Made by a program: the position numbers and the translations under genes. Under the pieces are notes generated by a model that saw only the letters and a program-made list of their open reading frames with translations, was not told where the DNA came from and did no database searches. From Octopus vulgaris (taxonomy: Eukaryota), in contig OX597836.1 in assembly GCA_951406725.2 (NCBI GenBank), positions 29,388,001 through 29,452,000 of the forward strand: a stretch of 64,000 bases of DNA, written 5' to 3'. Each line of letters begins with the position of its first letter. Positions within the stretch are counted from its first letter, which is position 1. Of this stretch, positions 5,495 through 56,064 are shown one piece after another.

Positions 5495-8400
5495 TGACAA
5501 CCGATGCTGGTGTGTTTACATTCCTGTAACTTAGCGGTTCGGTAAAAGAGACCAATAGAATTAGTACTAGGCTCACAAAGAATAAGTCCTGGGGTCGATT
5601 TGCTCGACAAAAGGCAGTGCTCCAGCGTGGCCACAGTCAAATGACTGAAACAAGTAAAAGAGTAAAGAGCTTCAAGATTTCAGTTGTGCTTGTTTATTTT
5701 TAGTATAACATTGTAGGGTAGGTGTGAGAGGACAGATCCAGCTGGTTTGAACATAAAGCAAGTAGCATATTTGGACTGGATATGGCTGGTTTAAATGTTA
5801 ACAGGTTAGAGGAGAACTTCCCAGCTGTAGCTACTCAGATCATCTATAAAGATTCACTATGTCTAAAAGCATGATGATTACAGCTGGAATACCTTTGATA
5901 AAACTGTGTAACATGATTTTCGTTCTTGGATAGCAACTGTTATTTCCTATTTGCTTAGCCCTATAAAGTATGAAAAATGATTAATATTTCCTTCAAACTT
6001 TGTTGCAATATTTATTTAAACCTCTCAAAGAATCCCTCTCAACACATGGCTATGATGTTCCCCCACTACTCCTGTTTATGATCAGAGATGCATATATTGT
6101 CAGCTTCTAAGGGACATGCTCAAGTGGTTATGGTCAAGCAAATCTCTGGTATTGAGCAGAATATTTGCTCTAATGATATTTCTACTTCAGTGACTCAGCA
6201 CTGAGTCTGTCTTAAATGTAATGGAAAATAGGTCAGTTTCAAAACATTGATGTCCAGGTCAGAAAAGCAAAATTTGAAGGGAAGAGAAGGGAAGGGTAGT
6301 CATTTCCTTTGATTTCTAGATAAAAGTAAATAGGAAATAACACTGACCAAAGAAAAATAAATAAATAGATAAAAATTTTGTTACACAGTACAATTGGTCT
6401 ACTTGATCAACGCTGACCTGGAGATAATCACTAACGATGATTAAAAATAGAGTTTATGAAAACATTTGAAAACAATTCATTGGAAAAGTTTATAGTCTGA
6501 GAAATGAAAATTCTTTTTGTTTTTTTTAGAGTAAAAGATATGAATCCATCAATATTGAAGACATTCCTGTCGCAGATATTGATCTGTCTGTGCCTTTACA
6601 TGTCCCAGGTAAGACTGCATGGCACACCTGCTTTGTGGATGTCCTCCTCCTCCTTTCCTCCTGGTCATTGTTGCTTGTTGAGGTCTCTATAAATGCTGCT
6701 ATAATGGATTGTTGTTGTTTTTGTTGAATGTTACTAATAAAATTATTTCATTTACAGAAATTGTTTATATTATTAAAAAGAAATATTCAAACAAAAAAGA
6801 AATTTGGAATTGAAACAAAAAACAATAAGCAAGATTTTGATATCGTAAAGTATGCAAACTAACTTAGTGTCTTTATTTATCTAACTTTTTTTACCCTTTG
6901 GATACCATCCAGGGGTTGAGACTGCCTCTGCTTAACAATATAAAACTCTAATTTTAAAATGTTTCATATTTAAATTAAAACTTTCCATCATAACTTTATG
7001 TAATAACCATTTCTTGTCATGAACATCAGAATAAAAACAGAAAAGATATTTCATTAGAATCCTCTCAAATACTTAATCATTTTCAAAATTAACTAAAATC
7101 TATAAATAGTGTGTGTATTTCTGTCAGAAATATAGTCTCAAAATTGTTAAAAGAAATCTTAATGCATTTTTTCATAAATCCAATACAAATTTTAATCAAA
7201 ATATTTTTTAAAATCTATTTTCAATCTTACATTGACTCTGTAAATTATTTACTATTTCCTCATATGTTTATTATTAGCCATCAGAGTCCCTCTGCCTTTG
7301 TTGGTTATTTGAGGAACACCTCTGATGAAGTCCTCTTTGTAGAGTGATTCTTGGGAATGTTACACTTCAGTGGTTTCCCCATTTACCTGCATGAGCTATA
7401 CCTAGAGGTGGAATTGAACTCAGCTGCTGCTCTTTGGAACAGCATTTTTTTTTTTCCTTATCCTGTAATATCTATTAACAGGTGGGTGGCCTGGCCCATT
7501 TGAGATTTTAAGTTTCTTGACCACAGACACTGCATTACCTCTGTCAGGAGATGAGCCACTGATCTCTCATCTGCTTGTCTCATACCTTATCCTCTTGCCA
7601 TTCTTATTACACATCTGCATTATTTAAATCTTGCTTGAGTAGTTTTATCACATGTTTAAAATGTCCGTTTTAACTGTCATAACTCATAATTCAAGCTTTC
7701 AGCCTCTCCGCTTTTTTTTTTTTTTTTTACTTCTGCTTTAAGTCTCCTTATCGGCTCACTATGCCTCCTCCTCCTCCTCCTCTAATTTCTTTATGTACTC
7801 TTGGTACACTCCTCTGTGCATCTAGGCTACATTTTGCTTGGAATACTCTAATCTTTTGCTATTTGGATGTCGTTAATTAAGAATTCATTATAGCTCTTCT
7901 ATATCTTTTGCCTCTTAAATCTCATTCTACCTTTGCTATTACAAATCTACTTTCTTCTAGAAACCATTTCTAGGGTTTTCTTTTTATCTCTTGAGAAAGA
8001 TTTATATTTCCATTGTTATTGTTTTAGACTTAGCCAAGTCTGACTAAACAGACTTATGATTAAGATTTTTCCAGCTCTGACTAGCCTATCTTCTTTTAGA
8101 TATATTGTATGCAAGAGGATTACATTATTCAATACATCCATGTATTTTAAAAAAGATATTATGATGTGGTTCGAGAAAGATTTGGTTGCTATTTCTAGCA
8201 AGTCAATTCACCATGTAAAACAGCACATGGGACTTTCTGAATGGCATGCCTAACAACCATTACCTTGAATTTTTCTTTTTGTAGTGCAGTTTACCTGATC
8301 ATGAGCCAAGTCTCATACAGTCCACCTTTTGTAAAAGGTTGCCCATGTCTGATGTAGAAGCTCTTTGGAGCCAATATAACTTTTTGTTTCAGTTAATAAG

Positions 8401-11400
8401 CCTAACCATAGATTCTGTTCCTACTTCACTGTTGAGAAGTTAGTTGTAGATGGAGCATGTAACTTTAGAAGTGACTGTTTCAGTAAATAGCATCTTGGCT
8501 ATGCCCATATGAAAATATGGATTTTTATCTGCCTCTGTTCCCCCAGTATTATCAATAGGATTAGTTGTTACTTTGAATGAATTGAGACACTGCAAAATAG
8601 CAAGGCATGAGGCAATCTGCTAGTGTTGGTGTCATAATATAATGCATCTTGTACATTTTGTGTAGCGGGTAGTGAATGAGTGGAGACAGTGCAAGACCAA
8701 GAGGACCCTTTAGTCTTGTTAATGCCATGGCCAATTCTTTAGTGTTGGTCTCACAACAAAATGTTCCAGTCATGGGGACCATACCTAAAGTGGAACACAT
8801 GTGAGATGTGGTCTGCCTACCTTGTCCTGATGGGTAGTAACCCTGAATAAGAAGTCACAGTGTGACAATCCACCTGACGCATGCTAGGTTGGAAAACAAA
8901 CCTAAAATGATGATGGTAATTACTAGAATCAATAGGTGTTGTTGCTTATCCCTGATCAAGCTGACCTATGATAATCTTTTTTGTTTAGACATGATGCTTT
9001 TGACCTATTATTAATGGTTTTTCTTTCACCTACCAAGTTAGGTCGAATACAGTCACTTACACATAAGTGTTTTCACATGTGTTAACAAGTTATTGATTTC
9101 TTTGTGAATAAGTAATTATAAATATATTGTCAATAAATAATATTAACAAATTCTAACTCATCACTCCAGTGACTAATAGCATTCAGCTCAAAATTTGAAA
9201 GTAAAAAGTATCCCAATAAATTTAACTGATAAAACGCCAAAGATAAACTTTGCCTCTCACACAGAAAGAATGTTCAATTCTAGTTTTTAACCCTAAAACA
9301 ACAATTCTATTTGAACTGTAGTTTCATACGGTTCAGGATTTGATGTTAGATGGTGTGGATATGTATGGTATAGGTTTTAAAAGTTAAGAAGATTACCAAT
9401 ATATGCAAGATTATCGATACACACTGTCTTTAGCACTTTTCATTTAAACCTCTCTCTCTTTTCTTTTTTCTCTTGCTTTTGCTTTTCAATTCATTATATA
9501 TCTTTTCACAATACATAGCAGCACATTTTCCTACTATCCTACATCTATTATTTCTTCTCACATTTTCACTGTCTTTTGGCACCTCACCTCTTCCCTTGTT
9601 TCCCTCTCCTTCTTGCTCCCCTACTTTGGTCAAAAAACTTTTGAGGTCGAAAAAAAAATCTCTTCCTATACTGAATGCAACATCTTCACACACATACACT
9701 CACACACATGTGCAAGCACAGCCAGATATGCAGGTATGGTTGTGTGGGTTAAGAAGCTTGCTCCCCAACCGTGTGGTCAGGTACTCAGTCTCTGTGTGTG
9801 GTACCTTGGGCAAATATCTTCTGTTGTAGCCCCAGGCTGACTAAAGCCTTATAAGTGGACGTGGTTGGTGGAAACTGAAAGAAGATCATCTAACCATGCA
9901 AACATGGAAAGATTTTATATGATGGACGTTACTTATAATGTTGAATAGCAGAAAAATTGAATCACTGAAATAGTGTCCCTAAAAGTTGCTAAAAGTTATT
10001 TTCTAAACATTAAAGACTATATCTCCCATAAATGTACTTTTTTTAATAAAATATTTGACTAAACCCAGTTAACCCTTCAATAATAATAATCTGCATGAAA
10101 ATGCCCCCTGACTCTGTGATCACTTTATTTTTTGAAGTGTCTATATCTAAACTAAAACCTTCTCTCATAATTTCAAATAAACATCAGCTTAGTTAATTCA
10201 TAACAAAATTGTTTTTACTAAATCTTTTCAAATTCTTGATTATCTTTTCAATATGATCACAAAAGGGTTGACTAAAAATTGAAATATTTTATTTTTAGAT
10301 TTAAGACGGTCTTCAGGTTAGGAAAAAATTTTTTTTTTTAAATTGTTCCTTGTTTGTATTTCATTTGTTTTGTTTATGATAACAAAACAAGTTTTGACAA
10401 ACTATTTTTATTCTCCTGAAAATAGTTTTGTCATTTTTTAAAAATTTGTTGATCTTCTTTATATGCATGCTTTTGTTGTGAGTATTTTGCATTGCACCAG
10501 AAAAAGCACCACCCCCATTAGAACTCGGTACATATTGGTTAGCCTTGTGTAATTAATTTTTAAAAAAAAGAGAAAGAAAAATAAACAAAAAAAAATCCAC
10601 AGTCAAAGCTTATCTCCTTCCTTCCTTCCTTTGGCTTGCTGAAAGTAACATGGCTGCCTGCCATGGGTGCCAGTATGGCTGCTGTATTGTACTCACACTT
10701 GCTTGACTTCTGTGGAAATGATTTTCTCCTCAGGTCTTTCCTCTTCAGACAAGTACTTGAAGCTGGGAAACAGTATGCTCGATGGTACAACCCACCAACC
10801 AGTTGGAAGCTCTACAACCAGTGGTAAGAAATCTAAGAAAACAAAGCGGAAGAGAGAAAGGAAAGGACAACATTATTCTGATACTGATGAGGAAGAAGTA
10901 GATGGCTCTGTGAATGCAGTTAGCACTGTGATGGACATGCCAGAGGTATGAGCTAGTCTAGAAATTTATTCATCATTTCACTTTTGCCTTGGTGGTATGG
11001 ATGAAGGTGGCAAGCTGGCAGAAACGTTAGCACGCCGGGCGAAATGCCTAGCGGTATTTCGTCTGCCGCTACGTTCTGAGTTCAAATTCCACCGAGGTCA
11101 ACTTTGCCTTTCATCCTTTCGGGGTTGATTAAATAAGTACCAGTTACCCACTGGGGTCAATATAATCGACTTAATCTATTTGTCTGTCCTTGTTTGTCCC
11201 CTCTGTGTGTAGCCCCTTGTGGGCAGTAAAGAAATAGGTATGGATGAATGTATCAGTCTTACCATTTTATTTTAGTATCATCTTCAACAACAAGGGGACT
11301 GGAGCCTCATAGAAAAATATACAGTTGTGTCTTCTATTGTATATTTTAGTTATTGTAAAGTCCTCTTCTGCTTAGTGGTTAGGGTAGCTGTCTCACAATC

Positions 11401-34585: not shown

Positions 34586-56064
<21,479 letters not shown>

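Follow-up and report, generated by a model that had tools for sequence, protein, structure and literature searches.

Microexon at the end of the AP-3 delta hinge

Does the AP-3 delta gene (AP3D1) of Octopus vulgaris use an alternative microexon beside the segment that binds the SNARE VAMP7, and would such an exon switch this binding? The question was raised by a sequence-only reading of the window, the whole stretch of 64,000 nucleotides that was analyzed, which had proposed an 18-nt exon regulated by Rbfox, carrying a PKA-type motif and acting as a tissue-specific switch for SNARE cargo sorting. The explanation that we favor, to which we give about an even chance, is that an alternative cassette together with an optional 15-nt acceptor segment gives rise to four forms of the hinge, which would tune a conserved motif immediately beyond the site predicted for VAMP7 and leave VAMP7 binding largely intact.

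The microexon, ATTTAAGACGGTCTTCAG, occupies positions 10299-10316 of the forward strand, preceded by a TAG acceptor and followed by a CAG|GTTAGG donor. It is open in frame, bounded by AG and GT, and its length is a multiple of 3 within the 3-27 nt of its class. In phase 1/1, its peptide DLRRSS (DLRWSS in O. bimaculoides) is inserted between ...IDLSVPLHVP, the end of the constitutive upstream exon (SKRYES...IDLSVPLHVP, 6530-6608, +), and GLSSSDKY, the start of the downstream exon (10734-10945). Translation of the exons bore out this phase and insertion, as the sequence-only reading had given them, and the acceptor, the exon, the donor, and the nearby TGACTAA and TGCATG elements all lie where it had placed them. 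The whole downstream exon scores above the Pfam AP3D1 cut-off (positions 62-130), and the upstream one, as a lone exon, matches positions 38-59 below the curated cut-off. About 31 nt 5′ of the microexon a branch-point-like TTGAC/TGACTAA (10268-10275, +; TGACTAA starting at 10269), which matches YTNAY and not CUAAY, presumably serves as the branch point. Five of the 11 copies of TGACTAA in the 90-kb gene span fall within the 4.1-kb intron 6609-10733 (at 8041, 9170, 9838, 10056, and 10269), one of them apparently inside a repeat.

To score the splice sites we built matrices from 33 constitutive acceptors and donors of the same gene, including 100 kb of upstream DNA. The acceptor of the microexon is a median one (8.6 bits, with 17 of the 33 constitutive acceptors scoring lower) and its donor is weak (5.2 bits, with 4 of 33 lower), having a T at +3 that none of the 33 constitutive donors shows. 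The donor of the upstream exon, at 12.0 bits, is the strongest of the gene. The microexon ranks first among the 103 open-frame candidates of its own intron (13.8 bits against 9.5 for the next), and the 86,219 intron bases hold 2,382 other AG..GT candidates (multiples of 3, no longer than 27 nt), none of which attains both of its scores. It exceeds chance and is the best-scoring small cassette among the introns of the gene. The combination of a weak donor with a very strong donor upstream would make skipping the default, in which case the exon is probably included at a low level or in certain cells only.

With regard to the origin of the exon, duplication of the downstream acceptor was considered and rejected, as the local alignment scored 16 and every one of 17 control acceptors did at least as well. 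In a search for a repeat origin, which skips common words, a 131-nt stretch gave a single match in the genome.

Skipping, inclusion, and a second acceptor

We examined eight of the 23 listed public runs as assembled contigs, which carry no tissue labels; none of the runs is recorded as RNA. Contigs in all eight join across the microexon. GT..AG joints 6608>10734 and 6608>10749 were found in contigs, with four further runs confirmed through loose ends. The first of these acceptors was used in five runs (X1, X6, X7, X15, and X18) and the second in four (X3, X13, X18, and X20), run X18 holding both at depths of 7.76 and 7.7. No contig carrying the microexon appeared among the matches listed for the eight runs. 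As contigs drop rare forms, these data establish frequent skipping but do not amount to evidence against inclusion. One contig of run X7 ends at 10317, beside the microexon donor. Unspliced contigs of low depth cover much of 6579-10317, the sole intron examined for this, in runs X3, X7, and X13.

The microexon of the earlier splice picture therefore stands, but the picture was incomplete, since a second in-frame acceptor at 10749, 15 nt 3′ of 10734, is also used. Contig joints and RefSeq isoforms delimit an optional exon start between these competing acceptors (GLSSS, 10734-10748, +), and contig joints mark the rest of the exon (DKYLKLG...VMDMPE, 10749-10945, +). Combined with the microexon, the choice of acceptor yields four versions of the hinge, P-DKY, P-GLSSS-DKY, P-DLRRSS-DKY, and P-DLRRSS-GLSSS-DKY.

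Inclusion is indicated indirectly, by RefSeq isoforms, which are automatic models, of two species. The microexon is thus already known: the public models of AP-3 complex subunit delta-1 in O. sinensis and O. bimaculoides hold the same exon and peptide and, in both species, all four combinations, with W replacing the second R in O. bimaculoides. The insert is present in four of the seven O. sinensis isoforms (X1, X2, X3, and X5; XP_036368245.1, XP_036368247.1, XP_036368248.1, and XP_036368250.1) and, as DLRWSS, in four of the six O. bimaculoides isoforms listed (for example, XP_052831955.1 and XP_014785043.1). The other 18 exons of the window agree with O. sinensis isoform X6 at 695 of 695 residues. 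Neither of the two listed O. vulgaris models has the insert; these Octopus counts cover 15 of the 18 members of their cluster. The insert was also missing from the cuttlefish cluster, in all 11 of the members that span the hinge, three of which are from Sepia pharaonis, and from the single Argonauta model. Conservation among cephalopods, by which the sequence-only reading was to be judged, extends to O. sinensis and O. bimaculoides and not to the cuttlefish cluster or the Argonauta model, and to judge from these proteins the microexon is probably restricted to Octopus. Our literature search found no paper on an AP3D1 microexon and, in titles and the beginnings of abstracts, no account of splicing at this hinge of AP-3 delta.

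The predicted essential VAMP7 contacts lie in a constitutive exon

In mammals, residues 696-718 of the delta-adaptin hinge bind the longin domain of VAMP7 (Kent et al., 2012; PDB 4AFI; PMC3549491). The sections of that report available describe I702/V704 and L709/L713 as essential for binding, on the evidence of mutations, and the residues past 718, including V725 and L727, as playing no part in it (PMC3549491); in a recent structure of the AP3 coat, as its accessible text describes it, the model of the delta hinge stops at residue 638 (PMC13178560). Alignment to 4AFI and 9RTX placed the octopus junction at human P716|G717, so that only the last two residues before the end at 718 lie beyond it. 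The constitutive upstream exon, 6530-6608, encodes the equivalents of all four essential residues, I702, V704, L709, and L713.

The partner is conserved as well. A canonical VAMP7 was located in the genome on C16 (query P0239); it keeps eight of the nine named interface residues, F25, V28, I32, K42, L43, Y45, Y50, and F52, the ninth, L4, being F in octopus. With the four hinge equivalents on one side and a VAMP7 with L43 and Y45 on the other, comparison of the proteins suggests that the octopus hinge has a VAMP7-binding segment, and that it binds VAMP7 is a reasonable prediction. As had been proposed, then, a frame-preserving microexon of AP-3 delta does adjoin this segment, with the interface conserved on both sides. 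The canonical VAMP7 was not among the top matches in Pfam Longin and Synaptobrevin searches, which returned instead a second, divergent longin R-SNARE on C1 (L033-L037; P0186, RefSeq name VAMP711). P0186 has relatives in Argonauta and abalone, and M and Y at the positions of L43 and Y45.

The proposed switch of VAMP7 binding fared less well. Since all four essential residues sit in a constitutive exon, an on/off switch is unlikely, and the microexon also keeps a Leu at 718: the two positions read D717-L718 when it is included and D717-K718 when both optional pieces are left out. Compared with the mammalian complex, for which the accessible part of the report (PMC3549491) mentions no splice variation at G717, the octopus junction alters residues from 717 onward only. 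In the mechanism we favor, the hydrophobic anchors for the longin groove of VAMP7 would be retained in all forms. The microexon would change G717 to D and keep L718, so that DLRRSS would either replace GLSSS nearly like for like or space it six residues off, and the form without both pieces, which would lose G717 and L718, is predicted to undergo the larger change.

Recurrent variation at the P716|G717 junction across animals

We compared isoforms in 27 hand-made groups, restricted to the longer members, from 20 of 59 homologue clusters plus three cephalopod clusters. The clusters were chosen for having several members, of which only some were covered in the large clusters (15 of 28 for Mytilus and 15 of 127 for Magallana), and the groups consist of gene models that carry no tissue data. 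The P716|G717 junction varies in 13 of the 27 groups, that is, in 8 of 22 genera and by six kinds of event. Five residues are lost in Octopus, cuttlefish, the mussel Mytilus, and the chiton Liolophura, and 15 in the abalone Haliotis; six are gained in Octopus, seven each in Aplysia and the amphioxus Branchiostoma, and one in Lingula. Each of the other junctions of the hinge and ear varies in at most one group. The amphioxus and Aplysia inserts are both 21 nt long. That of amphioxus is likely a cassette exon, because its codon phase rules out extension of a donor or an acceptor if the phase-1 intron is shared; the events in Aplysia and Haliotis are ambiguous as to splice type. Adjacent in-frame AGs can also give unregulated wobble of the acceptor at this junction.

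The stretch edited by these events, G-hydrophobic-x-x-[ST]-D-K-Y, is highly conserved just past the predicted VAMP7 site. A five-residue link is present in 40 of 59 representatives, nine of the remainder having no match to the motif and ten having other links. Within those 40, G717 and the S/T at 721 are invariant (40/40 each) and a hydrophobic residue stands at 718 in 39, in matches to a search pattern that itself restricted 722 to D or E and 724 to Y or F. The conservation of the motif may be due in part to the letters of the splice site.

The inserts of Octopus, Aplysia, and Branchiostoma share a junction but are unrelated, and in this they resemble the Type I convergent exons, distinct exons that occupy one intron position, of a recent preprint on tissue-specific splicing (bioRxiv 10.64898/2026.09.05.749416). 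That class also demands tissue-specific inclusion, and the likeness of the octopus exon to it is one of position. The preprint covers O. bimaculoides; AP3D1 is not named in the portions of its main text that were available (bioRxiv 10.64898/2026.09.05.749416).

These comparisons bear on the rival that survives best, which we hold possible though rather improbable. It takes the microexon for a young, near-neutral exon, a low-level product tolerated in a disordered hinge and retained since it leaves the frame intact and has little effect. The proteins of O. sinensis and O. bimaculoides differ at 5 amino acids in 1,272 residues, and one of these differences is the radical R>W within the six-residue insert, for which the chance at the protein's own rate is about 0.02-0.03; this points to weak constraint. 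The confinement of the insert to Octopus among the proteins examined fits such an exon too, as do the joining of contigs across it in every run and the absence of an eMIC signature and of motif enrichment (see below). It is harder to reconcile with independent models in two species that include the exon with both acceptors, with splice signals unsurpassed among 2,383 candidates, and with the 21-nt inserts that amphioxus (a cassette by codon phase) and Aplysia have at the same junction.

Regulatory and kinase motifs

A TGCATG lies at 10464-10469 (+), 148 nt 3′ of the microexon, and had been taken as a downstream Rbfox inclusion element. Alternative micro-exons of human genes show an enrichment of the hexamer on their downstream side, according to the available part of the report (PMC4317164). 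The octopus exon shares a downstream copy with these RBFOX-enhanced micro-exons but differs in that its TGCATG is at background density, is 148 nt off, and is accompanied by a second copy upstream. There are 54 copies in the 90-kb gene span (0.60 per kb), four of them in the microexon's intron, and at this density the chance of finding one within 250 nt is about 14%. Three of 32 constitutive exons have a copy within +250. The further copy at 10092-10097 (+), 207 nt 5′ of the microexon, was absent from the earlier account; upstream Rbfox sites are repressive. Because of the background density, the single downstream TGCATG is weak evidence for Rbfox. Another TGCATG is found at 6616-6621, 8 nt past the donor of the upstream exon.

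We also compared the exon with neural microexons of the eMIC/Srrm234 (SRRM3/4) program, whose code, as given in the accessible part of its description, combines a long AG-free zone and CUAAY with a UGC close to the acceptor (PMC8797185). The octopus exon is likewise very short and frame-preserving, with a weak donor and a strong upstream donor. Unlike eMIC microexons (PMC8797185), it has an acceptor that is not weak, no UGC within 50 nt of it (one is present in 10 of 32 constitutive exons), a short AG-free zone of 31 nt (shorter in 6 of the 32), and TTGAC in place of CTAAY.

RRxS and RxxS are kinase consensus motifs. The PKA-type RRxS to which the sequence-only reading had drawn attention is lost in O. 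bimaculoides, which has RWSS, and RxxS alone is kept in both Octopus species. When the microexon is joined to 10749, its arginines fall at −3 and −2 of the equivalent of the invariant S721. The literature search found no report of S721 phosphorylation, and one paper that appeared to deal with it was rejected as it concerned tau.

We consider it doubtful that the exon is a neural microexon which, driven by Rbfox, adds a kinase site and switches VAMP7/SNARE sorting by AP-3. The location where the VAMP7-binding residues end, the TGCATG at +148, the arginines before S721, and the RxxS of both species would suit this role. Octopus splicing, moreover, is highest in neural tissues, according to the part of that study available (PMC9699675), and contigs that drop minor forms leave room for neural inclusion. 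Nevertheless, TGCATG occurs at background density, RRxS does not persist in O. bimaculoides, the key contact residues are constitutive, and neither the eMIC elements nor a record of S721 phosphorylation was found in the searches described.

A broader and bolder reading, which strikes us as quite unlikely, makes P716|G717 a recurrent control point of splicing in bilaterians at which a conserved element is edited. The two-by-two code of octopus would then remove, keep, or space the element, or make it a basic kinase target, in a cell-type-specific manner, and so control a second partner or the release of SNARE cargo. The microexon itself is ordinary, and the recurrence of variation at this junction offers a modest lead. 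Such variation, if regulated, would indicate a functional motif, so far unstudied, beside the AP-3/VAMP7 site and would offer four natural variants for probing how the binding of SNARE cargo is tuned.

Finally, that gene predictors added a pseudo-exon without real use is very improbable: the inclusion junction was not seen among the contigs listed for the eight runs and two listed O. vulgaris models are without the insert, but the models of two species contain the exon, each in its own sequence version and joined to either downstream acceptor, and its splice scores are the top ones.

Other optional segments and the neighboring gene

Two further optional pieces of the gene lie upstream of the window. 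A 50-nt exon (L004:5094-5143) opens with the 21 nt that encode the trunk segment VLISIST, and since this 21-nt piece ends in CAG, the optional segment likely reflects an alternative acceptor. The trunk junction varies in 26 of the 27 isoform groups, always by the same seven residues, from molluscs to ticks and amphioxus, which makes it look like an ancient splice event. A 9-nt microexon encoding GAD follows ...NHKENE (L006:2473-2481); it is the sole match to its own pattern in a 25-kb intron, and RefSeq isoforms from both of the Octopus species contain it. At the same junction the insect Lycorma has an unrelated insert of three residues, FYT. Within the window, the open frame 36402-36869 (−) holds an exon-like stretch of a neighboring gene; it gave no Pfam match, and it resembles a PLP aminotransferase.
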